DNA from: Acetobacteraceae bacterium
GTDB lineage: Bacteria > Pseudomonadota > Alphaproteobacteria > Acetobacterales > Acetobacteraceae
DNA length: 64,000 bases
NCBI GenBank assembly: GCA_035500775.1
Contig: DATJWY010000068.1
Location: 567 to 64,566, forward strand
Direction of reading: 5' to 3'
Shown: positions 4,911 through 50,628 of the stretch, piece after piece
Numbering within the stretch: position 1 is the stretch's first letter
Layout of the letters: each line of letters starts with the position of its first letter
Translations under genes and position numbers: made by a program
Notes under the pieces: model-generated
Seen by the model: only the letters and a program-made list of their open reading frames with translations
What the model was told of the DNA's origin: nothing
The model's database searches: none

Positions 4911-5019
4911 TGATTTTCGCTTCCTGGAGGGATCGTGACAGAATCGGAGACGGGGGATTTTTCCGCCGCTTCTGGCGGGCCGGCTCGGCCGGATATCCTG
5001 AGCAGGAATTCGGTCATGG

Positions 5020-5913
5020 CTATTTTTGCCCGGGAGTTTGCGCGTGCTCGCTCAGCGCATCCGCCGCGTCGCTCCGCAAAATGGTCACGGCAATTCGCCG
5101 GTTGCGCGGATCATCTGGCGTCTGCGGCACCAGCAGGTCGGTCGCCGCCCGGCCTTCGATCTTCAGCATGCGATCGGCGCTCACGCCTTTGCTCTCCAGT
5201 TCCCGGCGCGCCGCGTTGGCGCGGTCGGCTGACAATTCCCAGTTGGAATAGGCGCCATGGTTAAGCGCCTGCCCGTCAGTATGGCCGGTGATGATGATGG
5301 AATTCTGAACTGTCGCGAGAACCTGGCCGATCACGCCAAGAATGCGCATCAGCCGTGGCGTCGGCACGGCCGAGCCTGGCTGGAACATACCCTGGTCGTC
5401 GCGGTCGAAGATCTGTAGCCGCAGTCCCTCCGGCGTCATCTCCACCGAGAGATTTCCCGCCACATCCTTGAGTTCACCCTGCGCTATCATGTGCTCGACT
5501 TCGGCCTTCACCGCCTCGAAGCGCTGTCGTTCCTGCGGGTCCTTGAACAGGCCCTCCGGGTCGGCGTCATTCTCTGCCGATGCGTTATCCTGCTGGACAG
5601 AGGGACCGCCATCCTCGCTGCTATCGATGATCTTCTCGATTTTGGGGTCGGCGCCATTCAGTATGGATTTCCCGCCATCAAGCGCACCGTTGCCCCCCGA
5701 CATGTCGAGGATGGATGCCGTGTTGAAGAATTTCGCAATTCCCTTGCGCTGGCTCTCCGTCGTTGATGAGAGCAGCCACATGATCAGGAAGAACGCCATC
5801 ATCGCGGTCACGAAATCCGCGTAGGCGACCTTCCATTGACCGGAATGTTCGTTGCGCTCTTCCGCGGCACGCTTGATGACAATCGGGCGTTTCGCGTCGT
5901 TTTCGCCGCTCAT
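5020..5913 (-). CDS. motB: flagellar stator protein MotB (OmpA-like C-terminal domain)
   Basis: WKVAYADFVTAMMAFFLIMWLLSS forms the TM/plug region. ..ITGHTDGQAL...NWELSADRANAARREL.. is the OmpA/MotB peptidoglycan-binding motif. Start moved to the internal ATG at 5913 (MSGENDAKRPIV); the track ORF extends to 5976. Confidence 0.88.
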   Translation of the reverse strand: MSGENDAKRPIVIKRAAEERNEHSGQWKVAYADFVTAMMAFFLIMWLLSSTTESQRKGIAKFFNTASILDMSGGNGALDGGKSILNGADPKIEKIIDSSEDGGPSVQQDNASAENDADPEGLFKDPQERQRFEAVKAEVEHMIAQGELKDVAGNLSVEMTPEGLRLQIFDRDDQGMFQPGSAVPTPRLMRILGVIGQVLATVQNSIIITGHTDGQALNHGAYSNWELSADRANAARRELESKGVSADRMLKIEGRAATDLLVPQTPDDPRNRRIAVTILRSDAADALSEHAQTPGQK

Positions 5914-5972
5914 CCAGAACCTTGCCGCAAAAAATGAGTGCGACCAAGGATAACTCCAAAGACATTTCGCAA

Positions 5973-6674
5973 TCAAGTTTTCGCTGGGGCATTCGCCGAG
6001 CGGATGGTCAGTGTTCCCTCCAGCTTGAGCCGACGCAAGGCATGGCTGAAACTATCCACCGTATCCGCCGCGAGCGGCCGCGGCAGGCTGCGTTCCGTCT
6101 CCATGACGGCATCCAGCCGGCAAAGCTCGAGCCGCCCGCGAATTTCGACGTGACCGATTTCCGCAAGCCTCACCCGTAAGGCAAAGGCGCCGATTCGCAT
6201 GATCCTGGCGTTACGGTCGGGTCGCCAGAAAAATTCCAGCCAAGTGATCGCCCCGTCCTGCAGGATTGGCACCCGCCGTCCGATCCAGGGGGCGGGATCG
6301 CCGAGCGGCGCGGGCGGCCGCGGTGCCTGGTCCAGCAACCGAGCGACCGCCGACTCCTCGAGATGCATCGAACCGGCAAGCCGCTTCAGCCGTGTCGCCC
6401 CGAGCCAGATTTCGCCGTTCGGCCGCAACGCCGCCAGATAGAAGGCGAGCACGAAGAATCGCCCGTCCATCGGCACCAGTTCGTCCAGTCCGGCACCGGC
6501 CAGCTGCGTTTCGTTGTTCGCGTCCCCTGCCGGGAGGAGCGCGCCGATGCCTGAGCCCCGGAGGGAAGGCCCGGTGCGGCGAACCGTCTGCACATAGGCG
6601 TGGCTTGCCTCCTGCGGTGAGCCTATTTCGCCGATCGGTTCGATCCCGGCTGATTCCTCCATTTCCGGGATCAT
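5973..6674 (-). CDS. hypothetical protein; C-terminal segment resembles the FliK C-terminal (Flg_hook) fold
   Basis: 233-aa ORF with GC3-rich codons between fliG and motB. Its segment LRVRLAEIGHVEIRGRLELCRLDAVMETERS..FSHALRRLKLEG parallels VVELHPAELGRVEVRLSFQDGGIGVQMTLDRKQ..LEQQLTQAGIDLG of the fliK gene in this window. The similarity was judged by eye only. Confidence 0.45.
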   Translation of the reverse strand: MIPEMEESAGIEPIGEIGSPQEASHAYVQTVRRTGPSLRGSGIGALLPAGDANNETQLAGAGLDELVPMDGRFFVLAFYLAALRPNGEIWLGATRLKRLAGSMHLEESAVARLLDQAPRPPAPLGDPAPWIGRRVPILQDGAITWLEFFWRPDRNARIMRIGAFALRVRLAEIGHVEIRGRLELCRLDAVMETERSLPRPLAADTVDSFSHALRRLKLEGTLTIRSANAPAKT

Positions 6675-6744
6675 GCCTCGTCGCTGTGGCGGATCACGGT
6701 TTCACGGCTTGTCATTTCGCGGCCTGATGTCGTCCCGTGCGCCA

Positions 6745-8021: not shown

Positions 8022-8098
8022 GGCGCGTAGCGCGGCGGCGATGCGCCGCCGCCGCCGCACCCGGCGCGTCCGTTCCTCCACGGCGCCGGTGGCTCCGC

Positions 8099-9010
8099 TC
8101 AATTGGCGAAACTCCGGACCAGCGAGCCGGAAACCAGCTCCCAGCCATCCACCAGCACGAAGAAGATCAGCTTGAACGGCAGGCTGATCACGGTCGGCGG
8201 CAACATCATCATGCCCATGCCCATCAGCAGGGATGAGACGGCGATGTCGATCACCATGAACGGCAGGAACAGCAGGAAGCCGATCTGGAACGCCTTCGAC
8301 AGTTCGCTGATCAGGAAAGCGGCGCACAGGATCTGCAACGGCAGATCGCCGCGTGCGGCGCGGGAGACGGCGCCCGGCTTCGCTTCCTTCGCCGCGGGCA
8401 CGGCAGCTGGCGGATCGGGCATGGCGGCGCTGTCGCCCGCCGCATACTTCGGCGGCGTCCATTGCGCCAGGTCCATGAAGAGCTGCAGATCCTTGTCCTG
8501 GGTATTCGCCTCCATGAAGGCGCGGAACGGCCGCATGCCCCGGTCGAAGGCTTGTTCCTCGGTGATCGAGCCGTCCATCAGCGGCCGCAGCGCGTCGCGG
8601 TAGGCGGTGTCGAAGGCGGGCGCCATGACGAAGGCGGTGAGGAACAGCGCCAGGCTGACAATGACGATGTTCGGCGGGCTCTGCTGTAGGCCGATCGCCG
8701 TGCGCAGCAGGGAGAGCACCACGACCAACCGGGTGAAAGCAGTCGCGACGACCAGGATACCGGGGGCAATCGACAAGACGGTGGTGAGCGCGACCAGACC
8801 GACCACATTCGTGGTCATGCTCTGCCCTTCACCCGTCGGGCCGAGATTGAGCGAGAGGCTCTGGGCGTGCGATTCCCCGGCCAGGAGCAGCGTGGCCAGC
8901 AGCAGCGCGGGCAGCAAGGCGAGAACGGCAGGCCAGCGCCTGTATCTTTGCCCCGGGCCGCGGCATGGCCTGCTTCCGGCCGCCGGGCGCGGATCAGCCG
9001 TATTCGACAT
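8099..9010 (-). CDS. fliP: flagellar export apparatus protein FliP
   Basis: 303-aa ORF containing ..FLLFLPFMVIDIAVSSLLMGMGMMMLPPTVISLPFKLIFFVLVDGW.., a diagnostic FliP core, with a long N-terminal signal region. Confidence 0.93.
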   Translation of the reverse strand: MSNTADPRPAAGSRPCRGPGQRYRRWPAVLALLPALLLATLLLAGESHAQSLSLNLGPTGEGQSMTTNVVGLVALTTVLSIAPGILVVATAFTRLVVVLSLLRTAIGLQQSPPNIVIVSLALFLTAFVMAPAFDTAYRDALRPLMDGSITEEQAFDRGMRPFRAFMEANTQDKDLQLFMDLAQWTPPKYAAGDSAAMPDPPAAVPAAKEAKPGAVSRAARGDLPLQILCAAFLISELSKAFQIGFLLFLPFMVIDIAVSSLLMGMGMMMLPPTVISLPFKLIFFVLVDGWELVSGSLVRSFAN

Positions 9011-11655: not shown

Positions 11656-11671
11656 TGGCGCGAAAACGGCA
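11656..11671 (+). promoter_or_regulatory. candidate sigma54-type -24/-12 element upstream of fliL
   Basis: TGGCGCGAAAACGGCA has GG at 11657-58 and GC at 11669-70, the exact GG-N10-GC spacing. It lies about 75 nt upstream of the fliL ATG. The -12 region is CGGCA rather than TTGCA, and no sigma54 activator gene is in the window. Confidence 0.3.
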
Positions 11672-11746
11672 GAGAGGTTATAGCTTGTGCGTCGCCAGTT
11701 GTCGCGCGAAAAACGCAGCGTTCCTCACGCAGGGCAGAAGGAAGCC

Positions 11747-13433: not shown

Positions 13434-13466
13434 GCCGGGGCTTTCGCACGGAGAATCCGAAAAACC

Positions 13467-15892: not shown

Positions 15893-16032
15893 GCGCCTCG
15901 CTTCCAGTCTGCGAAAAGATACGAAGTTTTATCACAGATGGCGGATGATTCCAATCATCGCCGGATTGCAGCCGCTCTCCCCATCCGCGAGGGATCAGGA
16001 GAGAACGGCCTGACGACCAGAAAGGAGTGAAT

Positions 16033-16479
16033 ATGCGAAACGGAGAGGCTTCCAGACGCATCCGTCTGCAGAGTCTGGGGTCCCTGGTCAAGCTCGCGCG
16101 TCGTGGCGTGGATGAGCGTCGGGCGGAGCTGTCCAGGATTGAGCAGGCGCTGGCGGAGGCCGCTCAGCTTGTTGCCGGGCATGATGCGCGGGCAGCGGCG
16201 GAGATGGAGGCGGCCAGGCAGGACCTGGCGGCCATGACCGCCTATCCCGCCTGGTCGGCGCAGGCCATGCGCCAGCGTGAGCAGCTGGAATTGCGCTGCC
16301 AGCAGTTGGAGACGGCCGGCGAGGCGGCGCGCGAGGCCCTGCGGGAGGCTTTCGCCGAACTCAAGCGTCTGGAGTTGGCGCAGCAGGCGGCGGAGCGGGA
16401 TGCGCGCCGGGCCGCGCTGTGCCGGGCGGAGAAGCGGGCGGAGGATCAAGAATACGCACGCCTGCGGGAAGTAGCCTGA
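16033..16479 (+). CDS. fliJ: flagellar export protein FliJ (alphaproteobacterial type)
   Basis: 148-aa all-helical Arg/Ala/Glu-rich protein (..LVKLARRGVDERRAELSRIEQALAEA..FAELKRLELAQQAAERD..). AAAGGAG lies 6 nt before the ATG at 16033. Confidence 0.65.
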   Translation: MRNGEASRRIRLQSLGSLVKLARRGVDERRAELSRIEQALAEAAQLVAGHDARAAAEMEAARQDLAAMTAYPAWSAQAMRQREQLELRCQQLETAGEAAREALREAFAELKRLELAQQAAERDARRAALCRAEKRAEDQEYARLREVA

Positions 16480-16639: not shown

Positions 16640-18367
16640 TCAGTCCTGCGTGTCCACCGCGATCCCCGGCCGCTTGCGGAACTTCTCCCACACCGCCAGT
16701 ACTTCGTTGATCTGGCTGTTCTGATCCGCCTTGCGCAGATCGAGCAGCCGGTCCCGCAGCTTCAGGATCATGTGCCCGGCCGGCAGGTCGGCCGCCGATT
16801 CCAGCCGGTCGAGGAAGACCCGGCCAAGGCGCGGATCATCCCGCAGGATCTTGTGCGCGACATACAGCATGGCCGAGGAGCGGCCATGCCGGACCATCTT
16901 CCGGCTGAAGCCGCGGAGCTGCATCAGATCCGGATTGTCGCGGATCACGTCCCGCACCTCAATGGCGGTCGGACGGGCATTCGGCTGGTCGGCGGGGCGC
17001 AGATCGCGCCGCCAGAGCAGAACGGCGGTGGCCGAGATCAGCGCCTTGTCGCCGAAATCCTCGAACAACTCATCGACGGGCGGCGCCTTCTTGGCCTGCT
17101 TGTCGTAGGTCTCGAACGCCTCTTCCGGCAGGCCGCGCATCACCATGACCTCGATCGGCTGCCCGGCCTCGATCACCGCGGAGAGGCGGTGCTGGCCGTT
17201 CAGGAGCCGGCCGGAGCGGGAGAAGCAGATCGGCTGCGCATTGAACATCCACTGGCCGTTCTTGATGTCCCGCGCCAGGGCCTCGACATGGGATTGCACG
17301 ATGTTGCGGTTGCCGCGATTGGCCGCGAGGTAAAGCTCGGCCTGCTGCGGCGTGATCGTCTCGACGGTCATGGAATAGGTGGAGGGATCGCGCAGCGCCT
17401 CCTCCGCCTCGGCGACGAGGCGCATCTCGGTCCGGGCGCGGTCCTCGGAATGCACCGGGTCCTTGAGGCCGTGATAGCCGGCGAGAGCCGGGAATTCCTC
17501 GCCGGTGCGTGGATGCTTGACGATGTCACTCCAGGTGTAGGCGTCGCTGCGCGTGCCGGCGATGGTGTCATTCAGCGCCTTGATGCAGACGGCGAAGAGC
17601 GCGACCGAGGAGAGGCGGTGCGCCTTGTCGGCCCGGCCTTCCAGCAGGCGGCGGCGGATCATCACGCCCGGCTCGTCCGCCTCGAACTTCTCGGGATGCG
17701 CGATCGCGTCGAGGAAGCGGCGGATCGCCGTGCGGTCCACCTGCAGGCCCATGAAGGTGAGCGGGGTGCGGATGCTCTCGGAGAGGAGGCGCGCCGGATG
17801 GTCGAAGCTGAATTTCACCGCTGTCTCGATCTCGGCGCGGTTCGCCTCCAGGCTGCGCTCCATGCGGCTCCAGGGCGGGGTGGAGGTGCCGCGGGTCAGC
17901 GTGCCGTCATCGTAGCGGATCAGCTTGGCGAGCATGCCGGCGACCGCGCCCGGCCGGTGCACGCCCCGCGTCTCCAGCACGCCGGTGAAGGAGCGGCGGC
18001 GCTGCTGGTCGATCGTGTGGACGGTGTCGTCCGAGACGTTCTGGGCGAGGGCGGTGATGAAGGGGGTCTTAGCCTCGATGCAGGCATAGAGGCGCTGCAG
18101 CCCGTCCAGCAGCACGCCGTTGCGCGAGATGATGATCGGCATGCCGTTCAGCACCCACTCGCCATTGCGCATCGCCTGGGCATAGCTGGCGACGGCCGCG
18201 GCGTTGCGCTTACCGGCGGGGCGTTTGCGGGCGAGGAATTCGGGCGCCATTTCCGGCGTGATGCGCACGATCGAGAATTCCGCCGAATGCGCGTCCGCGC
18301 TCCTGTTTTGCGCTGTCTGGCTGAACAGATCGGCCGTGGTTTTGGCGAGCGCGGTATCGACTGGCAT
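16640..18367 (-). CDS. tandem-duplicated ParB/sulfiredoxin-fold (ParB N-terminal-like) protein
   Basis: Two homologous halves. Half 1: ITPEMAPEFLA..NAAAVASYAQAMRNGEWVLNGMPIIISRNGVLLDGLQRLYACIEAKTPF. Half 2: ITPQQAELYLAANRGNRNIVQSHVEALARDIKNGQWMFNAQPICFSRSGRLLNGQHRLSAVIEAGQPI. The GQHR motif is intact only in half 2. Start set at the ATG at 18367, preceded by GAGGAGGAGA; the track ORF extends to 18568. Confidence 0.65.
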   Translation of the reverse strand: MPVDTALAKTTADLFSQTAQNRSADAHSAEFSIVRITPEMAPEFLARKRPAGKRNAAAVASYAQAMRNGEWVLNGMPIIISRNGVLLDGLQRLYACIEAKTPFITALAQNVSDDTVHTIDQQRRRSFTGVLETRGVHRPGAVAGMLAKLIRYDDGTLTRGTSTPPWSRMERSLEANRAEIETAVKFSFDHPARLLSESIRTPLTFMGLQVDRTAIRRFLDAIAHPEKFEADEPGVMIRRRLLEGRADKAHRLSSVALFAVCIKALNDTIAGTRSDAYTWSDIVKHPRTGEEFPALAGYHGLKDPVHSEDRARTEMRLVAEAEEALRDPSTYSMTVETITPQQAELYLAANRGNRNIVQSHVEALARDIKNGQWMFNAQPICFSRSGRLLNGQHRLSAVIEAGQPIEVMVMRGLPEEAFETYDKQAKKAPPVDELFEDFGDKALISATAVLLWRRDLRPADQPNARPTAIEVRDVIRDNPDLMQLRGFSRKMVRHGRSSAMLYVAHKILRDDPRLGRVFLDRLESAADLPAGHMILKLRDRLLDLRKADQNSQINEVLAVWEKFRKRPGIAVDTQD

Positions 18368-18456
18368 GGAATTCTCCTCCTCGGTCACCCTCCGGTCCGC
18401 CGGGCCGAGGGGTTGCGAATGGTGATGGCGGCCGGTGTCGTCACTATTAATGGATG

Positions 18457-18483
18457 GCGAAAATTTGCCAAGCGCCTTTTCGC
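18457..18483. promoter_or_regulatory. inverted pair of the GCGAAA box upstream of the ParB-like gene
   Basis: GCGAAAA (18457-18463), 13 nt, TTTTCGC (18477-18483). It lies 90-115 nt upstream of the ATG at 18367. Confidence 0.4.
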
Positions 18484-18590
18484 AAGCGGCCCGATTCTTT
18501 CGTAGCTCCTTAATCGACCTGTGATCCGCGTCTTCGGTCGCCACCAGTGACATCCTTATCCACGGCACGTCAGAGCCTCCGCTGGGGCGA

Positions 18591-18629
18591 TGCGAAATGC
18601 GTGCTAACGATTTTGCGAAATCGTGCTAT
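18591..18629 (+). promoter_or_regulatory. tandem TGCGAAAT-(1-2 nt)-GTGCTA boxes
   Basis: TGCGAAATGCGTGCTAA (18591-18607) and TGCGAAATCGTGCTAT (18614-18629) form a direct repeat with 23-nt periodicity in the divergent region between the ParB-like gene and the 18913 ORF. Confidence 0.45.
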
Positions 18630-19385: not shown

Positions 19386-20288
19386 GTGCGGAAGATCGTG
19401 TCGGAGGCTGACGGGACGTATCGGGTCATCGTTACCCGCAAGGGGGTGGCGCCGCGCGAGGCCCGTTGCGCCGATGCCGAAGCGGCGCTTGCCTGGGCTG
19501 CGGGGGCTGAAGCGGATCTGCGCCGGAGCACGCTGCGTTTCGGCGGTCAGGCTATCGTCGTGACGGGCGCCTTCTGCTTGCGCGACTATTTCCTTTCCTG
19601 CGGCATTCTTGGCGCGGCAGAGGGCGGTTCCGGCGACGACCTGGCGCTCCGCCTCGCGGATCTGCTCGCTGATGATCTGCTCGGCCTGCCGCTCGCCGCG
19701 ATCGATGGCGCGGTGCTTGCGGCCTTGCGCGTCCGTCGCGGGGAGGGGCGTGCCCCTCAGGCCGTGCTGTTGGAGCAGGCCATGTTGGCGGCGGCCTTTG
19801 CCCGCATGGTGCGGCGGGAATTGACGGGGCTTGAGTTGCCTTACGCCTTGCCGGCGCCGGATGGCATCCGGGTCCTCACGGTCGAGGAGCGGGCGACTTT
19901 GTTACGGATGGCCCAGCGCTCTTTCCATCCGGCTTTTGCCCTGGTGCTCCGCCTCGCTCTCGCCGTCGCCGCCCCGCTGGCCGCGATCTGCGCCCTGGGG
20001 TGGGAGGATCTTGACCTCCGCGCCCGGACTCTCCGCCTCGGCGGATGGCTGGAGCGCCTGCCGCCTGAGATGGCCGACGCCATCGAACATCATGTGCAAA
20101 CCAGCAGTGGCCTGCTCTTCCCGGAAGCGACCGAAGCGCGCGTCGCCTCTGGCCTTGCCGCGCTTGGCCGCCGCCTGGAATGGGGGAATCTGGCGCCGGA
20201 GACTCTGTTGCTGACCGCCTGGCAGGGGCGCTTGCTGGACGGTGCGCACCCGGAGAGCATCGAGCGCGCCCGTGCCGTGCGGCTTTGA
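19386..20288 (+). CDS. tyrosine-recombinase (phage integrase)-like protein apparently lacking catalytic residues
   Basis: GTG at 19386 follows AAGGGGA. The N terminus VRKIVSEADGTYRVIVTRKGVAPREARCADAEAALAWAAGAEADL resembles integrase N-terminal domains. ..LTVEERATLLRMAQ..LALAVAAPLAAICALGWEDLDLRARTLRL matches the box-I region but has no Arg. I see no HxxR or terminal Tyr context in the short C terminus. Confidence 0.45.
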   Translation: MRKIVSEADGTYRVIVTRKGVAPREARCADAEAALAWAAGAEADLRRSTLRFGGQAIVVTGAFCLRDYFLSCGILGAAEGGSGDDLALRLADLLADDLLGLPLAAIDGAVLAALRVRRGEGRAPQAVLLEQAMLAAAFARMVRRELTGLELPYALPAPDGIRVLTVEERATLLRMAQRSFHPAFALVLRLALAVAAPLAAICALGWEDLDLRARTLRLGGWLERLPPEMADAIEHHVQTSSGLLFPEATEARVASGLAALGRRLEWGNLAPETLLLTAWQGRLLDGAHPESIERARAVRL

Positions 20289-20317
20289 GGGGGGTACAAG
20301 CGGCCATCGACGGATTT

Positions 20318-20366
20318 GCGAAAAACACGTGTTCTTGTCTGTTTCGGCTTGAATGATTACGCGAAA
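20318..20366 (+). promoter_or_regulatory. two GCGAAA boxes and a sigma70-like promoter upstream of the bactofilin gene
   Basis: TTTGCGAAAAA begins at 20315 and CGCGAAATGCG at 20360. TTGAAT-N16-TAGAGT (20349-20376) encloses the second box. Confidence 0.35.
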
Positions 20367-20466
20367 TGCGTAGAGTTGCGAGGCAACGGTCCTCGTGCGG
20401 GGCGAATGTGTTCCTCGGGCCGTGCCAGCCTCTCGGCAACTCCAGAATGGAAAGGTCAATCTGTCC

Positions 20467-21117
20467 ATGTTCATGCGCGGCAAGGGCGCTCTCGGGGGCA
20501 ATAACGAGCTTGAGATCACGTTCGAGGGGCGCCGTCCTCTGGAAGAGTCGCGAGAAGCCTTCAGCGAAACGCTGAAGCTCGATGGGGAGATGGCCGAGGC
20601 GCGGCCTGCCGCCGTCCATGCCGCGTCCGGCACGGTGATCATGGCGGGCAGCGTCTTCGAGGGTACGATCAAGTCGAGCGGCCCCATCCGGATCGAAGGC
20701 ATTTTCTGCGGCACGATTTCCGGCACATCGGTCTCGGTCGAGCCCGGCGGACAGATCAGCGGCAGCGTCGAGGCGCTGAGCGTGCGTATCGCCGGCGATC
20801 TCAAGGGCATGGTTGATGCACGCGAAATCGACGTGGTGCGGACTGCCCAGGTCAATGCGGAGCTGACCTATACCGAGATCGCGATCGAGCGCGGCGCGCG
20901 GGTGCGCGGCGTGCACAAGCAGCGTGAGGAAGAGGCGCTGCCTGAGGCCGCCGCGCCCGACATCGCCGCCCATGTGACCAGCCCGATCAGCATCCCCGAT
21001 TTCGACACGGCGCGGCAGAAGGAAGAGGCTCAGAACGTGATCGGGCTCGACGAGCTGAAATCCCGAATCTCCCAACTGGTTCCGGGCCACGCCAAGGCGG
21101 AGGCTGCGGCGGGCTGA
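20467..21117 (+). CDS. bactofilin-family cytoskeletal protein
   Basis: ..GTVIMAGSVFEGTIKSSGPIRIEGIFCGTISGTSVSVEPGGQISGSVEALSVRIAGDLKGMVDAREIDVVRTAQVNAELTYTEIAIERGARVRG.. shows the repetitive beta-helical bactofilin (DUF583) pattern, followed by a Glu/Ala-rich tail. Confidence 0.75.
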   Translation: MFMRGKGALGGNNELEITFEGRRPLEESREAFSETLKLDGEMAEARPAAVHAASGTVIMAGSVFEGTIKSSGPIRIEGIFCGTISGTSVSVEPGGQISGSVEALSVRIAGDLKGMVDAREIDVVRTAQVNAELTYTEIAIERGARVRGVHKQREEEALPEAAAPDIAAHVTSPISIPDFDTARQKEEAQNVIGLDELKSRISQLVPGHAKAEAAAG

Positions 21118-21184
21118 TTCCGGGCGTCGGGGCAGAAACCCGAGGGCCAGGCTTCTTGCTGGCGGCCGGCCGGGAGGCGGGGGG

Positions 21185-21213
21185 GGCGTGCGAAAATAAA
21201 ACAGTCGCACGCC
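21185..21213. terminator. hairpin between the convergent bactofilin and 21224 ORFs
   Basis: GGCGTGCG (21185-21192) pairs with CGCACGCC (21206-21213) around a 13-nt A-rich loop. It is preceded by a G8 run (21179-21186). Confidence 0.5.
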
Positions 21214-21223
21214 AGCCCTGTTC

Positions 21224-21805
21224 TCACGAAGACAGACCGGGGCGTAGGGGCGTTGGCTGATGCGTGGCCAGGCCCGGATAGGGGATTGGTCTTTCACCCA
21301 TGGCCCGCAGCTTTTCATTGGCGGCTTTCACCACGTCGCGTGGGCCGACGCGGTAGCCGCGGAGCAGGTAGGTGCCGCCATGCGATCGACGGGCCAGGCC
21401 ATTGAGCACAATGATCGCCGCCTCGATCGGACCGCGCTCTGCGAGAAGCGTTTCCATCCTGGCTGGTTTCGGCGCCGGACGTGCCTTGCGTTGGTGCGCG
21501 GCGAGGACACGGTCTGCCCGGCGGGCGGCATACCAGGGCTCGAACCCGTATTCACGCGCAAGGCTGCGCACGTCCTCGCCGGCGAGCACACGGGCATCGA
21601 AGGCCGGGCGAAGTTCCGGCGGCAGGCTCTTGCGTCGCTTTCCGCTGTGCGAAGATTCGTTATCAGACACGACAACACCTCTCACGGCCGGCGCGGCCGC
21701 CTCGATGATCTCCCCTTCTGGGTCTGGGAAAAGCCGGTTTTCTACCGGCTTGAGGGATCGCGTTCCGCGCGGCCGGATCGGCGTGGCGGGCGGCGGGTCA
21801 GTCAA
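21224..21805 (-). CDS. hypothetical protein
   Basis: 193-aa ORF with GC3-rich codons, divergent from the flgJ-like gene. The opposite-strand ORF 21260..21835 is Arg-rich and looks like a shadow. No family recognised. Confidence 0.45.
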   Translation of the reverse strand: MTDPPPATPIRPRGTRSLKPVENRLFPDPEGEIIEAAAPAVRGVVVSDNESSHSGKRRKSLPPELRPAFDARVLAGEDVRSLAREYGFEPWYAARRADRVLAAHQRKARPAPKPARMETLLAERGPIEAAIIVLNGLARRSHGGTYLLRGYRVGPRDVVKAANEKLRAMGERPIPYPGLATHQPTPLRPGLSS

Positions 21806-21868
21806 TTCTTAGGTCAAAAACCTTGCAAATCGTGAACAGAATACCGTTGCGCGCGGGTGGGTGAGACG

Positions 21869-22733: not shown

Positions 22734-22817
22734 ACTTCCACCGCACGGGTTTCTGGCGAAATCCGTGCAGTCGCCAGGGTTTCGAGGGAGAAGCGGATAG
22801 TCGCCTCAGGGTGAGGT

Positions 22818-22957
22818 TGGATACTGAATATTATAGCGATATATTAAAGAAACGAAAAATCGTTCATAAAAATAAATATTTTGCATTAATCAGTTTTTAG
22901 GGTGGCGGCGGACCGGATATTTTCATTTTAGTCTATGACGGATTATCCACCAAAATA
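22818..22957 (+). promoter_or_regulatory. AT-rich island upstream of the flagellin gene
   Basis: ..GGATACTGAATATTATAGCGATATATTAAAGAAACGAAAAATCGTTCATAAAAATAAATATTTTGCATTAATCAGTTTTTAG.. is strikingly AT-rich against a ~65% GC background. A sigma54-like TGGCGAAATCCGTGCA lies at 22754-22769. Confidence 0.5.
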
Positions 22958-23099
22958 GCGAAAGCCGTTTGCGGTACAAGCTTTACAATGGTGTGCCGTT
23001 TTTGGATCATTCCGTGGTCACTGACCGGGTATAGAATTCTTCCGGCGGCGGCTTGCGTCAGAAGGACGCTCCCGCAAAACCCCCGAATGGGAGCTTCTC

Positions 23100-29430: not shown

Positions 29431-29557
29431 TTTGCGAAAGTGGAACGATCATGTCCACAAATCTTTGCGAAAAGTGGTGCATTGAGTGCGATCCATCCGC
29501 CGTGCAGGCGGCCAGTGCGGTCGCTGCGCGTATGCGAAATGTTTTGACTATGCGAAA
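29431..29557 (+). promoter_or_regulatory. four TGCGAAA boxes plus a sigma70-like promoter in the fliI/flgB divergent region
   Basis: TTTGCGAAAGTGG (29431), TTTGCGAAAAGTGG (29464), TGCGAAATG (29533) and TGCGAAACGG (29551). TTGACT-N17-TAAAGT (29544-29572) encloses the last box and lies about 30 nt upstream of the flgB ATG. Confidence 0.5.
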
Positions 29558-29599
29558 CGGTGCAGATAAAGTTCCTGCGATGTTCCATTCCGAGGCGAC

Positions 29600-35214: not shown

Positions 35215-35625
35215 TCAGGGGGTGATCCCGTGCGTTCCGCCGCCGATCGCGAGGTCTTCCTGCTGGATCAGACGGCGGACGAATTTCAAGGCTTGATAGA
35301 GATTATCCGCCTCCGCCGCGGCCAGCGCGTCGTCCAGCATCTCCCGCGCCGTCGGCGGCACCACCGGGCGCAGGGCGGCCGCGATCTGCCGGGCGTTCAT
35401 CAGCCCAACCGCTCGTTCGTGCTCTGCGCCGATATAGGCGCATTGGAGGGCATAGTAGATACGTCTGGCGGGCGTATCGGCGTTCTCCGCCTGCATGATC
35501 TGCTTGCCGAACATGAAACGCGCATGCGTCGTCAGTTCGATGCTGGATTTCGTGCGGAAGCGGAGGGCGGCGCCATTCACGATCATCAGATCGTTGGCGC
35601 GCAATTCCAGAACCAGATTAGACAT
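35215..35625 (-). CDS. flbT: second FlbT-family protein (no adjacent FlaF)
   Basis: MSNLVLELRANDLMIVNGAALRFRTKSSIELTTHARFMFGKQIMQAENADTPARRIYYALQCAYIG.. parallels the FlbT at 25618. Confidence 0.75.
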   Translation of the reverse strand: MSNLVLELRANDLMIVNGAALRFRTKSSIELTTHARFMFGKQIMQAENADTPARRIYYALQCAYIGAEHERAVGLMNARQIAAALRPVVPPTAREMLDDALAAAEADNLYQALKFVRRLIQQEDLAIGGGTHGITP

Positions 35626-35811: not shown

Positions 35812-36180
35812 TTAGGGTGAAACCAGGCCCTGACGGATGGCCCAGAGGACAAGAGATGTCCGGTTCGGCAGGTTAAGTCGTTCGAGCAGTCCCTTGATGT
35901 GAGTCTTGACCGTGGCCTCGCCGATTTGCAGCCGCCGCGCGATGGCACGGTTACTGAGGCCTTGGGCAAGCAATTCCAGGGTGGCCAATTGTCGGCCGGT
36001 CAGCGGGATGGTTTTCGGCCGGCTCGTCCGCATCAGCGTTTGAAGTTCGGCCTGCACCAGACCCAGCCGCTCCTCGGCGCTGCCGGGCCCCTCGATGAGG
36101 GCCCGTAAGCGGATCAGCGCATGCTCCGGGGCCGCTCGGTTCGTCAAGGCGGAAGCGCGGCCTATCGCTGCCGGGAACAT
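35812..36180 (-). CDS. short LuxR/FixJ-type HTH transcriptional regulator (no receiver or ligand domain)
   Basis: ..LTGRQLATLELLAQGLSNRAIARRLQIGEATVKTHIKGLLERLNLPNRTSLVLWAI.. is the GerE/LuxR HTH. Start set at the ATG at 36180 (about 122 aa); the track ORF extends to 36330. Confidence 0.75.
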   Translation of the reverse strand: MFPAAIGRASALTNRAAPEHALIRLRALIEGPGSAEERLGLVQAELQTLMRTSRPKTIPLTGRQLATLELLAQGLSNRAIARRLQIGEATVKTHIKGLLERLNLPNRTSLVLWAIRQGLVSP

Positions 36181-36347
36181 CGTCGGTGCCGGGCTGGTCA
36201 CGTCCTGGGTGTCTCCTTGTCCGAGGCGTCGGTTCCCCGGGGCATCTCGGTGCAGGATCGGCGCGTTTCCGCCCGGGTGGGTGGTCTCCTTCGGCCTGAC
36301 GCGACAGGTCGGCTCGGGGGCATGCGGCATGCAGCGTGAGGCCCCGC

Positions 36348-36626
36348 TTAGCCTGGTGTCCTGTAGATGATGCGAATCCGCATGCCCGTCTGGGTGGGGA
36401 TCGCGATCACCTCGGACCGGGCCGCGCCGTTCGGCAGGTCGAGCAGCGAACTGCTCCGAAAGCCGATCAGCAGCGCCGCGCCGCCCAGGGTCAGCAGGAT
36501 GAGGGCGGCACTGATGGCCACCGGCAGCGGCGCATCGAATGGCTCCTGGGTGGAGATGGCGGCGCCGACCGAAAGCAGGATGGCGAGTGGGCCGATCAGT
36601 CTGAAAGCCTGGTTATGCGTGGACAT
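36348..36626 (-). CDS. small hypothetical two-TM membrane protein
   Basis: MSTHNQAFRLIGPLAILLSVGAAIS...PVAISAALILLTLGGAALLIGF... lies downstream of minE on the same strand. No family recognised. Confidence 0.35.
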   Translation of the reverse strand: MSTHNQAFRLIGPLAILLSVGAAISTQEPFDAPLPVAISAALILLTLGGAALLIGFRSSSLLDLPNGAARSEVIAIPTQTGMRIRIIYRTPG

Positions 36627-36658
36627 GGCTTCCTCTCCTTTCCGGATTTCGCGGCGAT

Positions 36659-36901
36659 TCAAGGCCGCACCCGCGGCACTAGGTCGATATCGATCTCGAG
36701 CACTTTCAGCTGACGCGAGATCCCCTGCCGGACATTGACGTGGCCGCAGCGCAGGTTGCGCTTTATCGCGTTCAGGATGTCGTCCTGCAGGCGGTCCAGC
36801 GGATTTTCGCCCGCCAACTGGACGCGATCCGAGGCAATCAGGTTTGTCAGACGGTCGCCGGCGACGGTAGCGGCCGGCTTTTTCTTAAGACTGATCGACA
36901 T
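36659..36901 (-). CDS. minE: cell-division topological specificity factor MinE
   Basis: MSISLKKKPAATVAGDRLTNLIASDRVQLAGENPLDRLQDDILNAIKRNL..QLKVLEIDIDL is the MinE pattern, 80 aa. It starts 7 nt after the minD stop. Confidence 0.8.
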   Translation of the reverse strand: MSISLKKKPAATVAGDRLTNLIASDRVQLAGENPLDRLQDDILNAIKRNLRCGHVNVRQGISRQLKVLEIDIDLVPRVRP

Positions 36902-36908
36902 TGGGCCT

Positions 36909-37769
36909 TCACTCCACTTCCGCCCGGGCGGCGATCTTGCGGCTGAACAACCGCTGGAAGATGGTGCGGTTCTCGGCTTTCGGCGCTTCCGGCGCGCGCA
37001 CTTCGGCCGGGTCGCCGAGGAAGCGGGCGATCGCGTCCTTGTAGGCTTGGCCGGCATCGCTGTTCGGTTCCAGGCTGACCGGCCGGCCGAGATTCGAGGC
37101 GCGCAAGATCCAGTGGCTTTCCGGAATGATCCCGAGCAGATCGACGGACAGGATGTCCTGGATGACGTTGACATTGAGCATCGCGCCGGACTTCACCCGG
37201 CTCTCGTCGTAGCGGGTGACGAGTAAATGCTCCTTCACCGGGGCGCGCTCTTCCTCGGCGCGCTTCGAGCGCGAGGCGATCAGGCCGAGGATGCGGTCAG
37301 AGTCGCGGACGGAGGAGATCTCCGGGTTGGTGACGACGATCGCCTGATCGGCGTGGTAGAGCGCCATCAGCGCGCCCTGCTCGATGCCGGCCGGGCTGTC
37401 GCAGATAATGTATTCGAACTCGTTTCGCAAGGCTTCGATGACGGCGTTGACGCCGGCCTGGGTCAGCACGTCCTTGTCCTTGGTCTGGGAGGTCGCGAGG
37501 ACATAGAGGTTATCGACCCGCTTGTCCTTGATCAGTGCCTGCCCAAGCTTCGCTTCACCGCTGATGACGTGGGTGATGTCGAAGATCACGCGGCGCTCGC
37601 AGCCCATCACCAGGTCAAGATTTCGCAGGCCGACATCGAAATCAACGACGACGGTCTTGTGGCCGCGCAGGGCGAGTCCGGCCGCGAAGGCGGCGGAGGT
37701 GGTCGTCTTGCCGACCCCGCCCTTGCCGGAGGTTACGACGATCACCTGGGAGTTCTGGACCTCGGTCAC
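36909..37769 (-). CDS. minD: septum site-determining ATPase MinD
   Basis: ..VIVVTSGKGGVGKTTTSAAFAAGLALRGHKTVVVDFDVGLRNLDLVMGCERRVIFD.. contains the deviant Walker A. GTG start at 37769 after GGAGA; the track ORF is longer. Confidence 0.92.
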   Translation of the reverse strand: MTEVQNSQVIVVTSGKGGVGKTTTSAAFAAGLALRGHKTVVVDFDVGLRNLDLVMGCERRVIFDITHVISGEAKLGQALIKDKRVDNLYVLATSQTKDKDVLTQAGVNAVIEALRNEFEYIICDSPAGIEQGALMALYHADQAIVVTNPEISSVRDSDRILGLIASRSKRAEEERAPVKEHLLVTRYDESRVKSGAMLNVNVIQDILSVDLLGIIPESHWILRASNLGRPVSLEPNSDAGQAYKDAIARFLGDPAEVRAPEAPKAENRTIFQRLFSRKIAARAEVE

Positions 37770-37794
37770 TGGGATTCTCCTCTGATGGACCGGT

Positions 37795-38496
37795 TCAGGA
37801 CAATGCGCCGAAGCGCAAATAGCCCTCTTGCAGGAAGAGTTGTGTCCGCTTCCCCCGCCATTCTGGCAGGAAGTCTTCCGCGGCCATGTAGTAGCCGCTG
37901 ATCGAGACCAGTTCGGCCTCCAGCGTGCTGACGAAGATTCGCGCCTGCTGGTCGTCATTGATCCCGGCGAGGGCGCGGCCGCGCAGGGTGCCGTAAATGT
38001 GGATATTCCCGTCCGCCAGAACTTCCGCGCCGGCGGAGACGGAGGCGAGCACGATCAGATCGCCTCCCGCGGCATAGATCGAGCGGCCGGACCGGATCGG
38101 TTCGCGGATGATCAGCGGCGGCCGGCGCGGTGATTCCGCGGCCGTGCCGACGCCGTGAGTTTCGCCGGGAATGATTTTCGCAAGACCGATATCGGCGGCG
38201 CGCCGCGCGAGGTCGGGGTTGCCGCTCTGGATGCCGACGGGGATCAGTCCGTAGCTGCGAACGCGTTCGCTGATCGCGGCAAGGTCGATCTCGTTGGCTT
38301 GCAGGGGGGAGTTGGTGAAGTCAAGGACGACCGGGGCGACGGAGAAGAAGCCGGGTGCCTGGGCGATTTTTTCGGCCAGGAGGGTATCGAAATTCCCGTC
38401 ATGCGGGTTTTGCACCTCCAGCGTGACCAGGGCGTGCGACTGGCTTTTCAGCCGGAGAGGGGGAAGTCTGCTGCTCGCACCGGAGGAAGCGTTCAT
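37795..38496 (-). CDS. minC: septum site-determining protein MinC
   Basis: ..IREPIRSGRSIYAAGGDLIVLASVSAGAEVLADGNIHIYGTLRGRALAGINDDQQARIF.. is the MinC C-terminal beta-helix motif. Confidence 0.88.
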   Translation of the reverse strand: MNASSGASSRLPPLRLKSQSHALVTLEVQNPHDGNFDTLLAEKIAQAPGFFSVAPVVLDFTNSPLQANEIDLAAISERVRSYGLIPVGIQSGNPDLARRAADIGLAKIIPGETHGVGTAAESPRRPPLIIREPIRSGRSIYAAGGDLIVLASVSAGAEVLADGNIHIYGTLRGRALAGINDDQQARIFVSTLEAELVSISGYYMAAEDFLPEWRGKRTQLFLQEGYLRFGALS

Positions 38497-38573: not shown

Positions 38574-38650
38574 TTTCGCATACCTTTTCCTGTAGTCCTG
38601 ATCGGAAAATTTCGCAAGGCTTTTGTGAGGCGAGCGCCTCGAAATTTCGC
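38574..38650 (-). promoter_or_regulatory. three GCGAAA boxes (minus orientation) upstream of minC
   Basis: TTTCGC at 38574, 38610 and 38645, with 35-36 nt spacing. On the minC strand they read ATGCGAAACG, TTGCGAAATT and CGCGAAATTT. They sit between the SLT-gene terminator and the minC start. Confidence 0.45.
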
Positions 38651-38670
38651 GCTACCGCCCTGTTCGGGTA

Positions 38671-39709: not shown

Positions 39710-39745
39710 TTTCGCAAAAAGCGTCTGGCCGAAGGTCGTGCGAAA
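39710..39745. promoter_or_regulatory. divergent pair of GCGAAA boxes between the SLT gene and motA
   Basis: TTTCGC (39710-39715), 24 nt, GCGAAA (39740-39745, within TGCGAAATGATAAG). Each box points toward its downstream gene. Confidence 0.45.
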
Positions 39746-46576: not shown

Positions 46577-46686
46577 AGACAGGGGAGTTCGCGAGCCGCT
46601 CCGCGGTGCGCGATAAACAAGAGGCTCGTTCCAGGATCGCCCTGCTGCGGTGACGTGCCCCGGTACACGGACACGCCTCGCGGCGC

Positions 46687-47382: not shown

Positions 47383-47416
47383 GGAACGCTCCGGTTTTGC
47401 GCGTCGGGGGGCTGCC

Positions 47417-49240: not shown

Positions 49241-49397
49241 GGAACAGGATCTCGTCTGGTGGATCGAGCATGGCATGGCCCGGCCCGTTTTGGTGTTGTC
49301 CCGTGTGGTCACGCGGGCGGATTTTCGCCGGTGAAAGTGGCCGAAGCGGACTTACGCGGCGGATCGCTTCCGACCAGCCGCATTGCCCGCCGGCTCG

Positions 49398-50150
49398 TCA
49401 GGGGAACAGTGCATCGATCGCGTCCTGCGAGGCCTCCCCGGTCGGTGCTGAGCCGGTGCCATTCAGCAGGGCGTCGATCGCATTCTGTTCGAGGCCGTTC
49501 TCCGTCGGCCCGTTCAGGAGATGCGAATCCGGTCGATCATCCACGCTCGGCGCTTCCGCACCTGTGAGGTCAACAGATCCTTCCCAAAGTGCCGCGAGCG
49601 AGATGATGCGCTGCTCGATATAGTTCAGCGCCTGCACCACCTTGCGGATGCGTTGGCCCGTGAGATCCTGGAAGGAACAGGCCATCACGATATCCATCGC
49701 CGCGTTGTCGATCACATCGACATGGCGCAGCACCTCGGGCGACAGGCCGGGTTCGGCGCGGATGTGCTGGATCGCGTCCTGCGACCGTTCCGCCGCCCCC
49801 ATGATCTCGACCGCGGCCCGCTCTGTCGCGCTGACGACGCTGTCGAGTTCGCCGGAGGCACAGGTCAGCCGGGAATGCGCCTGCTCGCCGGGGATCAGCC
49901 CGGCCACTTCCGACCGCGTCTCCGCGATCAGCCGGCCCATGCCTCGCAGCTCGTCCTGCAACAGCTTGAGCTGGTGCTGCGCCTCAGCTTCGCCTCCCGG
50001 GCGTACCGTGCCGAGGCGCGCGACTTCATGATGCAGCTGCGCGGTGATCTGTTCCAGCCGCGATGCCATGGCCGCGGCGGCGGCGTAGGTATTTTCGCCC
50101 AACGCCGCACCGCCGGGAACGGATGCGGCGCCTGCCCCTGTTGCGTTCAC
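49398..50150 (-). CDS. cheZ: CheZ-like CheY-P phosphatase
   Basis: ..IVMACSFQDLTGQRIRKVVQALNYIEQRI.. contains the CheZ catalytic DLTGQ context. A long helical hairpin precedes it and an acidic C-terminal peptide (..SQDAIDALFP) follows. It lies immediately downstream of cheY. Confidence 0.75.
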   Translation of the reverse strand: MNATGAGAASVPGGAALGENTYAAAAAMASRLEQITAQLHHEVARLGTVRPGGEAEAQHQLKLLQDELRGMGRLIAETRSEVAGLIPGEQAHSRLTCASGELDSVVSATERAAVEIMGAAERSQDAIQHIRAEPGLSPEVLRHVDVIDNAAMDIVMACSFQDLTGQRIRKVVQALNYIEQRIISLAALWEGSVDLTGAEAPSVDDRPDSHLLNGPTENGLEQNAIDALLNGTGSAPTGEASQDAIDALFP

Positions 50151-50167
50151 GCGGCCCTCCGTTCGCT

Positions 50168-50527
50168 TCAGATGACCGTGGCGATCTTCGCCTTCAGCGT
50201 GTCGGCGGTGAACGGCTTGACGATGTAGTTGCTGACTCCGGCCTTCTTGGCCTCGATCACGTTTTCTGTCTTGCTCTCCGCCGTGACCATGATGAAGGGC
50301 AAGGGCGCGAGCGCGCTGTCCGCCCGCACTTGCTTGAGCAGTTCGAGTCCGGTCATCGGCTCCATGTTCCAGTCGGAGATGACCAGATCGAACTTTCCCG
50401 AGCGCAGCTTCGCGAGCGCCTCGCTGCCATCGGCCGCCTCATCGATGTCGGCGTGTCCGATCTGACCGAGGAGGTTCCGCACGATCCGGCGCATGGTGGC
50501 ATAATCGTCAACAACGAGAATTTTCAC
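50168..50527 (-). CDS. cheY: chemotaxis response regulator CheY (single receiver domain)
   Basis: GTG at 50527 after GGAGA gives [64 protein letters not shown]. The DD, D and K receiver residues are in place. Confidence 0.9.
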
Positions 50528-50598
50528 GGTGTCTCCGCCAGCAAGCGATAAAAGAGAGGCTCCGACCATTGCGGTCGGAGTGAGCCTATCTGACAGGA

Positions 50599-50628
50599 TT
50601 TCGCGAAGGGTTAATGTCGCCGGCGAAA
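50599..50628. promoter_or_regulatory. inverted pair of GCGAAA boxes upstream of cheY
   Basis: TTTCGC (50599-50604), 18 nt, GCGAAA (50623-50628). It lies about 70-100 nt upstream of the cheY GTG. Confidence 0.4.

Follow-up and report, generated by a model that had tools for sequence, protein, structure and literature searches.

An oriented TGCGAAA box before the motility operons of an Acetobacteraceae clade

In a contig of an Acetobacteraceae bacterium (GenBank assembly GCA_035500775.1, DATJWY010000068.1, positions 567 to 64,566), a short oriented word with the core TGCGAAA stands before motility operons. This 64,000-nucleotide stretch (the window) and the box within it are best introduced by way of the described systems that they resemble. 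In CtrA regulons, as here, one short oriented motif precedes most flagellar and chemotaxis operons and an 11-bp periodicity is seen, and the content of the regulon proposed here (flagella, cheY, minCDE and a cell-wall hydrolase) is very similar. The rhizobial CtrA regulon reportedly includes minCD, according to work on S. meliloti. The sites themselves differ, because CtrA boxes are pairs of half-sites 11 bp apart whereas those described here are single 7-mers, mostly at least 18 nucleotides (nt) apart and unrelated in sequence. The "0A box" bound by Spo0A in Bacillus (TGTCGAA) is also a 7-mer, and many promoters within a single developmental regulon carry several copies of it, in varying orientation. 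The two words are similar (TGnCGAA and TGCGAAA), a likeness that serves as a lead only: phylum and protein family differ, 0A boxes are usually paired at 10-11 bp, and no Spo0A homologue was seen (and none was expected).

FtcR and Rem, OmpR-type proteins of the Rhizobiales, offer another parallel, being lineage-specific master regulators that act directly on flagellar class II promoters in alphaproteobacteria without FlhDC or FleQ. The FtcR motif of Brucella, defined by chromatin immunoprecipitation sequencing and electrophoretic mobility shift assays, is TGTGGGCA (PMC9456535) rather than TGCGAAA. This operator is absent among the enriched intergenic k-mers (words of length k) listed for the window, for its close relative L001 and for the Rhodovastum plasmid (both introduced below), and neither the window nor the plasmid carries such a regulator gene. 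Seven-bp sites that occur singly, in tandem, inverted and at variable positions are familiar from the NarL/GerE family; the heptamer itself is different (TACYYMT for NarL), and the strict orientation of the box would be atypical for that family. The sigma-28 (FliA) -10 element GCCGATAA is likewise part of flagellar promoters; it has a CGA core with A or T after it and is oriented with transcription. The box differs from it in having no TAAA -35 partner, in occurring as multiple phased copies per promoter, and in standing at early flagellar operons as well. No description of this word was found in the literature, nor any of flagellar gene control in Acetobacteraceae.

The window (65% GC) holds 66 genes, called with a codon log-odds model and named from Pfam and NCBIfam. 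Because the word must not be picked after the fact, all 6-, 7- and 8-mers in its 7.0 kb of intergenic DNA were ranked, with strands collapsed, against dinucleotide shuffles of the same DNA. The top 6-mer was GCGAAA (29 observed, 7.7 expected, Poisson p 3.7e-9), the top 7-mer TGCGAAA (17 against 1.26, p 4.5e-14) and the top 8-mer TTGCGAAA (8 against 0.38, p 7.2e-9); the runner-up words came nowhere near these three. GCGAAA occurs 4.1 times per kb between genes and 1.07 times per kb in coding sequences (CDS). Outside positions 4915-50628 there are no intergenic copies, and the window's roughly 1.1 kb of non-motility intergenic DNA holds none.

An earlier note on this DNA, made by eye, had proposed the box as a recurrent signal of the motility cluster. 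Every GCGAAA or TTTCGC copy that it listed is present, and it had missed two intergenic copies, 13442(-) and 21190(+), and one at 45388(+) that probably lies within flgH. Its 9-mer TGCGAAATG occurs exactly five times, at the places given, with 0.76 expected and none of 100 shuffles reaching five. The argument from the 8-mer GCGAAATG fails: there are 8 copies in the whole window, but the shuffles expect 3.9 rather than about one, and 5 of 100 reach 8, so that this count is not significant and was replaced by the intergenic ranking. The tandem pairs, the inverted pairs and the triplet with 36- and 35-nt spacing are all as first described. The statement that nearly every intergenic region holds a copy was too strong, since on our own reading of the gene and copy lists the cluster has about 31 such regions 60 nt or longer, and about 14 of them do so; these are essentially the regions that precede operons, namely divergent regions and gaps ahead of operons. 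Several of the listed copies, although correctly placed, are weak variants and probably chance occurrences (4915, 26619 and the GGCGAAA copies); GGCGAAA is not enriched between genes across relatives.

A whole-replicon control is provided by plasmid RHOApa of Rhodovastum atsumiense G2-11 (NZ_OW485602.1, 220,129 bp), which was analysed over its full length. Its flagellar, chemotaxis and minCDE genes lie in four zones, and some 150 kb encodes other functions (hydrogenase, formate dehydrogenase, glycosyltransferases, transporters and insertion sequences). TGCGAAA occurs 21 times in the 13.2 kb of motility-zone intergenic DNA (1.59 per kb) and twice in the other 26.1 kb of intergenic DNA (0.08 per kb), a roughly 20-fold gap in density (Fisher's exact p 1.3e-8). 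In the three zones absent from the loci collected earlier, TGCGAAA again ranks first (13 against 1.26 expected, p 1e-9), and TTGCGAAA is the top 8-mer (8 against 0.24). Boxes stand before minC (51545, 51564), motA (three), cheY (two), flgB (three), fliL and fliF, and motB. The earlier note had allowed that the word might prove equally common in non-motility intergenic DNA or in CDS; the plasmid contradicts the former, and the latter is contradicted by the far greater intergenic density in the window and in the pooled relatives. Within CDS of the plasmid the word is about five times as dense in motility genes as in other genes (0.30 and 0.06 per kb). In the window, 14 CDS copies lie in motility genes and none in other genes; examples are 11906 and 12044 in fliL, 37423 and 37621 in minD, and 39332 and 39342 in the gene for an SLT-domain protein. 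Such copies may be internal promoters or sites, or may reflect mis-set start codons.

The box recurs in relatives. A scan of genome contigs for FlhA yielded one close relative, the metagenome-assembled genome L001 (FlhA 76% identical); the other 79 loci were at or below 53% identity. L001 has 13 copies of TGCGAAA, and no other FlhA locus more than 8. In its intergenic DNA, GCGAAA and TGCGAAA are again the top 6- and 7-mers, with 5 copies of TGCGAAA against 0.49 expected (p 1.6e-4, the word having been fixed beforehand). Among 77 flagellar loci outside the clade, of similar GC content, the intergenic density of TGCGAAA has a median of 0 and a mean of about 0.13 per kb, and the box is therefore clade-specific. 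Eighteen further loci were fetched by homology to orf582, the ParB-like gene of the window; the contigs from a metagenome scan with the same gene were mostly short. The homologues, with 50-79% identity, carry the names Rhodopila, Rhodovastum atsumiense, Roseomonas, Teichococcus and Pseudoroseomonas, and orf582 is a good lineage marker for the acidophilic/Roseomonas part of the Acetobacteraceae. Because most relatives were obtained in this way, the co-distribution of orf582 and the box is partly circular.

In the fetched loci, boxes that nearly always point at the gene recur before flgB (usually two or three) and before flagellin where it is included (usually one to three), and also before the rod-binding-protein gene, the bactofilin gene, motB, cheY and fliL/fliF. 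Teichococcus vastitatis, whose orf582 is only 53% identical, has seven of seven TGCGAAA copies between genes and none in CDS. Pooled over the relatives, there are 1.76 copies per kb between motility genes, 0.45 between other genes and 0.30 in CDS. The comparison of orthologous promoters suggested in the earlier note comes out in favour of the box: in several lineages the regions upstream of flgB, flagellin, fliL/fliF, motA, motB, cheY, minC and bactofilin carry it, and the boxes are retained although the surrounding sequence has diverged. The box is thus a real, conserved, clade-specific cis-element of a motility regulon. The further proposal, that minCDE, bactofilin, the ParB-like gene and the SLT gene share a regulon with the flagella, is supported by conservation for minC (in Rhodovastum), bactofilin (Rhodovastum and Teichococcus) and the ParB-like gene (several lineages); for the SLT gene the box is seen in the window alone.

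Two alignments, of 39 and 72 copies, define the box as yTTGCGAAAw, with an invariant GCGAAA core and a first base in the order T > C > A. Information is restricted to yT-TGCGAAA-w, apart from a purine enriched 7 nt downstream. No partner element at a fixed distance appears on either side in the positional information of either alignment, and k-mers within 50 nt on either side are little enriched beyond further copies of the box. Around a given copy it is the box itself that is most clearly enriched, so that the sites form clusters of one word. Among single-base variants just two exceed 12 intergenic copies, CGCGAAA (35) and AGCGAAA (13); both are about 3-fold enriched over CDS, the enrichment being clear for CGCGAAA alone. 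Across relatives, GGCGAAA and substitutions within the GCGAAA core show no intergenic enrichment.

The earlier note had held that the box is no CtrA, sigma-54 or sigma-28 site, and tests of sequence and spacing bear this out for all three. The CtrA box (TTAA-N7-TTAA(C)) has three one-mismatch matches in the 64 kb against 0.96 expected, none of the three in a box-bearing region, and its sequence is unrelated. For a sigma-54 promoter (TGGCAC-N5-TTGCW; GG at -24 and GC at -12, spaced GG-N10-GC), neither alignment has a conserved G at the required upstream positions. For a sigma-28 promoter, with TAAA about 15 nt before GCCGATAA, nothing is enriched 10-40 nt upstream except copies of the box, and only the CGA core is alike. 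The 16-bp ParB-parS palindrome TGTTNCACGTGAAACA has no counterpart; GCGAAAC resembles only its half-site GTGAAAC, from which it differs by one base. Rfam cis-regulatory RNAs gave one sub-threshold match in the whole window, an unrelated one (COG2908, 52959-53006). An UP element (the alpha-CTD site, A/T-rich, -38 to -59, with no fixed G/C core) would share the T- and A-tract flanks, but the box has a fixed GCG core in which substitutions are unenriched, and its position relative to the -35 varies.

In co-directional intergenic regions of 12 non-redundant loci, TGCGAAA runs along the genes 28 times and against them twice (binomial p 9e-7), and the shorter GCGAAA 46 and 13 times; within CDS neither orientation is favoured (34 sense, 32 antisense). 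Where genes diverge, a copy is directed at its own gene and is usually nearer to it, as with 39710(-) and 39739(+) or the four flgB copies. Spacings between neighbouring same-strand copies cluster at 23-24, 30-36, 55-58, 65-68 and 79 nt, and those in orthologous flgB promoters differ by roughly whole turns of the helix (56-58, 65-68 and 79 nt). A Rayleigh analysis peaks at a period of 11-11.5 (R 0.46-0.70; empirical p 0.006 as the maximum over periods 10-12, uncorrected for shared promoter ancestry); the phasing is only suggestive, because related promoters are not independent. An OmpR/PhoB-type operator would have two direct half-sites 10-11 bp apart for a head-to-tail dimer. The spacings here are near multiples of 11, yet none of 30 same-strand spacings is 10-12 nt; one pair is 9 nt apart, and the shortest are otherwise 18-24 nt. 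The aligned copies show no degenerate second half-site at +/-11 of the box.

At flgB, 4-5 nt separate the proximal box from a conserved -35-like hexamer, which reads TTGACT in the window and TGGACA or TAGACA in relatives; 17-18 nt further on comes a hexamer starting with TA, the relatives having been read by eye. In the flagellin promoters of relatives the box lies 7-16 nt upstream of TTTACA-N17-CTAAAC. Both arrangements would suit an activator that binds immediately ahead of a weak promoter of the sigma-70 type. A scan for E. coli-like sigma-70 promoters downstream of copies matched 7 of 136 with no fixed offset, and such a model is uninformative for alphaproteobacterial promoters.

These features are consistent with the idea of the earlier note that the box serves a so far undescribed regulator. 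We consider it probable, judging from the DNA, that the box is an operator for a single sequence-specific transcription factor. The operator sequence is new to the literature found, while a regulon-defining operator is of a familiar type. The putative factor would control the motility regulon in an Acetobacteraceae clade comprising Rhodopila, Rhodovastum, the Roseomonas/Teichococcus group and uncultured soil relatives, including the source of the window. Its regulon would take in flagellar, chemotaxis (cheY-cheZ) and stator genes, minCDE, bactofilin and several clade-specific genes. Each operon start has between one and four copies, all reading along the coding strand of its downstream gene, and spacings close to multiples of 11 bp would place them on one face of the helix. 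At flgB and flagellin, a weak -35 hexamer of the sigma-70 type follows directly after the promoter-proximal copy. The factor would bind these sites, probably cooperatively, and recruit or stabilise RNA polymerase, and the few copies at or downstream of a promoter (at the SLT gene, and in flgB and flagellin leaders of relatives) could repress or fine-tune.

Several points weigh against an operator of this kind. The copy before the SLT gene ends 24 nt from the start codon and is too near for an upstream activator site. Two relatives (L096 and L098) have a copy abutting the flgB start codon, and several flagellin and fliL leaders have one downstream of the predicted -10. Such copies are not accounted for by a pure upstream-activator model. 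The distance from box to predicted -35 or start codon is not constant, the transcription starts are themselves predicted positions, and the evidence for phasing carries the uncorrected ancestry of the promoters. A strict orientation rule with single 7-bp sites is also unusual for dimeric helix-turn-helix regulators. The remaining difficulty is the protein, since no regulator gene is consistently linked to box-bearing clusters in the window, the relatives or the Rhodovastum plasmid, and each of the two DNA-binding candidates that follow meets an obstacle in its distribution.

The earlier note had named three proteins of the window as possible binders, and none of them found support. The GerE/LuxR-type protein (35812-36330, the gene probably starting at 36330) has a helix-turn-helix domain most like that of NarL; its gene is the last of the minCDE-orf104b operon, which has a three-box promoter, and a homologue in L099 has a box 69 nt upstream and adjoins homologues of orf412 and of a 224-amino-acid (aa) gene in an extended motility cluster. 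Its distribution is narrow, with only about eight close homologues and no copy on the box-bearing Rhodovastum plasmid, where an XRE-family gene occupies the equivalent place. The ParB-like orf582 (16640-18388, -) contains an internal duplication of a ParB-N/DUF262-like module with DGxQR motifs (DGVQRL at residues 95-100, NGQHRL at 397-402). It matched no Pfam or NCBIfam family, and no helix-turn-helix domain was identified in it; the AlphaFold2 model (mean pLDDT 79) has the ParB N-domain as its best PDB match by Foldseek, a weak one (E 0.025). These tandem folds offer no clear, and no demonstrated, sequence-specific DNA-binding domain, and the likeness of the box to a parS half-site is a resemblance only. 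The gene adjoins flagellar genes in nine of nine loci whose surroundings were inspected. For the product of 19386..20288, the label "integrase-like" has no family or fold support. A further candidate, from the relatives, is a CtrA-like response regulator of the OmpR type encoded beside the fliJ-like gene and orf582 (L086 3703-4329 (-), L096 12154-12954 (-), L098 12171-13013 (-), and a partial gene in L093, 16151-16678). CtrA is the NCBIfam family that it matches best, though with a score far short of the cut-off; neither the window nor the Rhodovastum plasmid has the gene, and it has only 18 homologues at E <= 1e-20. Of the three leads, the GerE/LuxR-type protein, orf582 and this response regulator, none is convincing, and the regulator is therefore probably encoded elsewhere in the genome.

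Other explanations must be set beside an operator. That GCGAAA-like words are merely common in the AT-richer non-coding DNA of high-GC genomes might be argued from the whole-window count of GCGAAATG (8 against 3.9) and from weak variants (GGCGAAA, some AGCGAAA) with little or no intergenic enrichment. This explanation is hardly credible and is already refuted: intergenic-only dinucleotide shuffles still leave 17 copies against 1.26, intergenic density on one and the same replicon is 0.08 per kb outside the motility zones and 1.59 within them, the orientation is 28 to 2, the result is replicated in independent genomes, and the word is nearly absent from flagellar loci of other clades with similar GC. 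A more serious rival places the signal in RNA, as UGCGAAA in the 5' leaders of motility mRNAs, bound, in many cases at more than one site in a leader and in some at the ribosome-binding site, by a CsrA- or FlbT-like RNA-binding regulator or a small RNA that coordinates the translation or stability of flagellar operons. The same 28 to 2 sense orientation would be expected of it, as would copies near start codons (24 nt away at the SLT gene with a ribosome-binding site between, and abutting the flgB start in L096 and L098) and those downstream of a predicted -10 in several flagellin and fliL leaders; several sites per leader are the usual pattern for CsrA-type repressors, and two FlbT paralogues and FlaF are encoded in the window. 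We nevertheless regard it as unlikely. A period of about 11 nt suits the DNA helix and not RNA, and the flgB and flagellin copies, lying upstream of conserved -35-like hexamers, would not be transcribed from those promoters. In the 207-nt fliI/flgB region the distal copy lies 42 nt from the fliI start and would imply a 190-nt leader. CDS show no sense bias, variants with A changed to G, with which a small-RNA seed could still pair through G-U wobble, are not enriched, and there is no Rfam match.

The box could also be a core promoter element, with TGCGAAAw as the main element of a motility-specific alternative sigma factor, a diverged form of the sigma-28-type -10 (GCCGATAA), and transcription starting about 7 nt downstream. 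A sharply defined 7-mer, strictly oriented with transcription before nearly every operon, would suit such a role, and the box and the sigma-28 -10 have the CGA core in common; in one flagellin promoter, from Rhodopila, the corresponding position reads TGCGATAA. The purine enriched 7 nt after the box, the plausible 17-nt leader with a ribosome-binding site that the SLT copy would give, and the TGnTA, extended -10-like, that follows a subset of copies all point the same way. Against this stand the lack of a -35 partner at a fixed distance in 72 aligned copies, the two to four tandem, helically phased copies per promoter, which would not be expected, and the conserved sigma-70-like -35/-10 pairs downstream of the proximal copy at flgB and flagellin. 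Early genes (flgB, fliF, fliL, the flhA operon) and late genes share the box, unlike in known sigma-28 regulons, and no sigma-factor gene was found among the window genes scanned or is annotated on the Rhodovastum plasmid. Taken together, these points make the core-promoter explanation unlikely. A broader formulation joins elements of both rivals: the box would be an oriented signal on the non-template strand or the nascent RNA of every motility operon, either serving a dedicated elongation factor or RNA-binding regulator as a site of recruitment or pausing, or acting as the sole element of a new motility sigma factor. This is kept in view, as a rather unlikely explanation, because the box is strictly sense-oriented, some copies adjoin ribosome-binding sites and no transcription-factor gene is linked. 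If true, it would mean that the whole flagellar hierarchy, minCDE and bactofilin are coordinated at or after initiation by a mechanism that is not known for flagella.

The genes served by the box form one motility supercluster at positions 1-50.5 kb. From the left it comprises flgI-L-K-E, motB, fliG-P-N-F, fliL-M, a fliJ-like gene and orf582 (582 aa); then bactofilin, the rod-binding-protein gene, flagellin, flaF, flbT and a DUF1217 gene; then fliI, flgB-C-fliE-Q-flhA-fliR-flhB, a second flbT, the GerE/LuxR-type gene, minE-D-C and the SLT-domain gene; and on the right motA, flgF-G-A-H (flgH probably starting at 45187), flgD, fliK, cheZ and cheY. The two FlbT paralogues are at 25618-26079 (+), beside flaF, and at 35215-35625 (-), after flhB and on the opposite strand. 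The other 13 kb of the window, with a desaturase and ABC transporters, is unrelated to motility. At the edge of the motility cluster lies a conserved module of orf412, a 118-aa gene and a 224-aa gene (window 50695-53214, L099 219-3555, Rhodovastum plasmid 49466-51287), which has upstream boxes in L099 and Rhodovastum.

In the left part, an AGCGAAA at 4915..4921 (-) overlaps the flgE ribosome-binding site and is probably a chance copy. The TGCGAAA at 5965..5971 (-) lies about 50 nt upstream of motB, as in Rhodovastum (127353) and Teichococcus L097 (20877), and a CGCGAAA variant at 6715..6721 (-) lies upstream of orf233 (5973-6674). The fliF/fliL divergent region has a distal and a proximal CGCGAAA directed at fliL (11659..11665 and 11705..11711, both +); fliL-oriented pairs are also found in L001 (16877, 16900) and Rhodovastum (132898, 132960). 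Between fliM and the next gene, the TGCGAAA at 13442..13448 (-) is one of the two opposing copies among the 30 in co-directional regions of the 12 loci. The fliJ-like gene (16027-16479) is preceded by TGCGAAA at 15910..15916 (+), with counterparts in L092 (14578) and L093 (12222). Toward orf582 points the TGCGAAA at 18478..18484 (-), which forms an inverted pair with a weak and doubtful GGCGAAA at 18456..18462 (+); orf582-oriented boxes are present in L084, L092, L093, L094 and L095 and absent in L096 and L098. A tandem pair of TGCGAAA 23 nt apart (18591..18597 and 18614..18620, both +) is directed toward a small conserved open reading frame that probably starts at 18913.

Upstream of the bactofilin gene (20422-21117) are TGCGAAA at 20317..20323 (+) and a second box, CGCGAAA, at 20360..20366 (+); boxes also precede the bactofilin gene in Rhodovastum L092 (9355) and Teichococcus L097 (8070, 8093). 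A gene-poor stretch of 739 nt (21118-21856, 66% GC) separates bactofilin from the rod-binding-protein gene; it contains no convincing gene and one TGCGAAA, at 21189..21195 (+), oriented like the flanking genes. In Rhodovastum (L092) the two genes directly adjoin, without this stretch. Before flagellin, the window has only weak variants, a doubtful GGCGAAA far upstream at 22755..22761 (+) and an AGCGAAA at 22957..22963 (+), 18 nt upstream of the -35-like TTTACA of the flagellin promoter, in an upstream region that is unusually AT-rich (47% GC), whereas relatives have a strong TGCGAAA there. The flagellin itself (22734-25046 region) has 648 aa, against about 300 in most relatives. The longer protein and the AT-rich, weak-box upstream region suggest that the flagellin gene or its promoter has been replaced. 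Just before the start codon, the flagellin 5' leader contains an element, GCGTCAGAA-N-GGCGCTCCCGCAA...CCCTGAATGGGAGC, that is strongly conserved in the window and ten relatives (window 23050-23105 (+), L001 3213-3270, L092 7481-7539(-), L097 5586-5640(-) and others). In its consensus fold, GCUCCCG pairs with UGGGAGC and covers the ribosome-binding-like GGGAG, with slight covariation. It matches no Rfam family, and it is plausibly a target of FlaF/FlbT.

The fliI/flgB divergent region holds four TGCGAAA boxes, all pointing (+) to flgB, whose start is probably near 29620. Box 1 is at 29433..29439, box 2 at 29466..29472, 33 nt from it, and box 3 at 29533..29539, 4 nt upstream of the -35-like TTGACT, an arrangement that recurs in four relatives; box 4 (29551..29557) falls within the spacer of the predicted sigma-70-type core promoter, TTGACT-17-TAAAGT (29544..29572, +). 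Two or three flgB boxes are found in L001, L082, L095, L096, L098 and Rhodovastum, and one in L094. In five relatives, though not in the window, the flgB start codon is directly preceded by an inverted repeat, T(T)CGCA-AGAAA-TGCGA(A), whose two halves resemble the box (L001 at about 8525-8545, L082, L095, L096 4245-4270, L098 4234-4260); in L096 and L098 it contains the copy next to the start codon. The repeat may act as a palindromic operator, or as a hairpin in the leader that covers the ribosome-binding site.

The triplet before the minCDE-orf104b-luxR operon consists of a proximal and a middle TGCGAAA (38574..38580 and 38610..38616, spacing 36) and a distal CGCGAAA (38645..38651, spacing 35), all on the minus strand; the Rhodovastum plasmid has its two minC-oriented copies. 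In both the window (35812-38496, -) and the plasmid (51676-54025) minCDE lies within the flagellar supercluster and boxes precede minC. The genes that follow minE encode a small membrane protein and the GerE/LuxR-type regulator in the window, and an XRE-family regulator and a small membrane protein in Rhodovastum. The TGCGAAA at 39710..39716 (-) is the SLT copy, separated from the GTG start codon by 24 nt that include the ribosome-binding site GAGGAGG, and TGCGAAA(TG) at 39739..39745 (+) lies 63 nt upstream of motA, where Rhodovastum has three motA-oriented copies (30889, 30917, 30943). A GGCGAAA upstream of fliK (49323..49329, -) is weak and doubtful. Upstream of cheY stands CGCGAAA at 50599..50605 (-), with a weak, doubtful inverted partner, GGCGAAA, in the opposite orientation at 50622..50628 (+); cheY-oriented TGCGAAA copies are found in Rhodovastum (41994, 42051) and Rhodopila L093 (20605, 20672).

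The usual alphaproteobacterial signals, CtrA boxes and sigma-54 and sigma-28 promoters, are absent from these promoters, and the box defines a regulon by sequence alone. Through it minCDE, with its role in placing the division site, bactofilin and several conserved genes (the tandem ParB/DUF262-like gene, orf412 and a gene for a 100-aa protein) are wired to motility in at least three lineages. R. atsumiense G2-11 is a culturable and genetically tractable relative (PMC9938234), and it carries the whole system on one 220-kb replicon, which eases decisive experiments. The 7-bp core offers a direct handle on the putative master regulator of motility in this clade.

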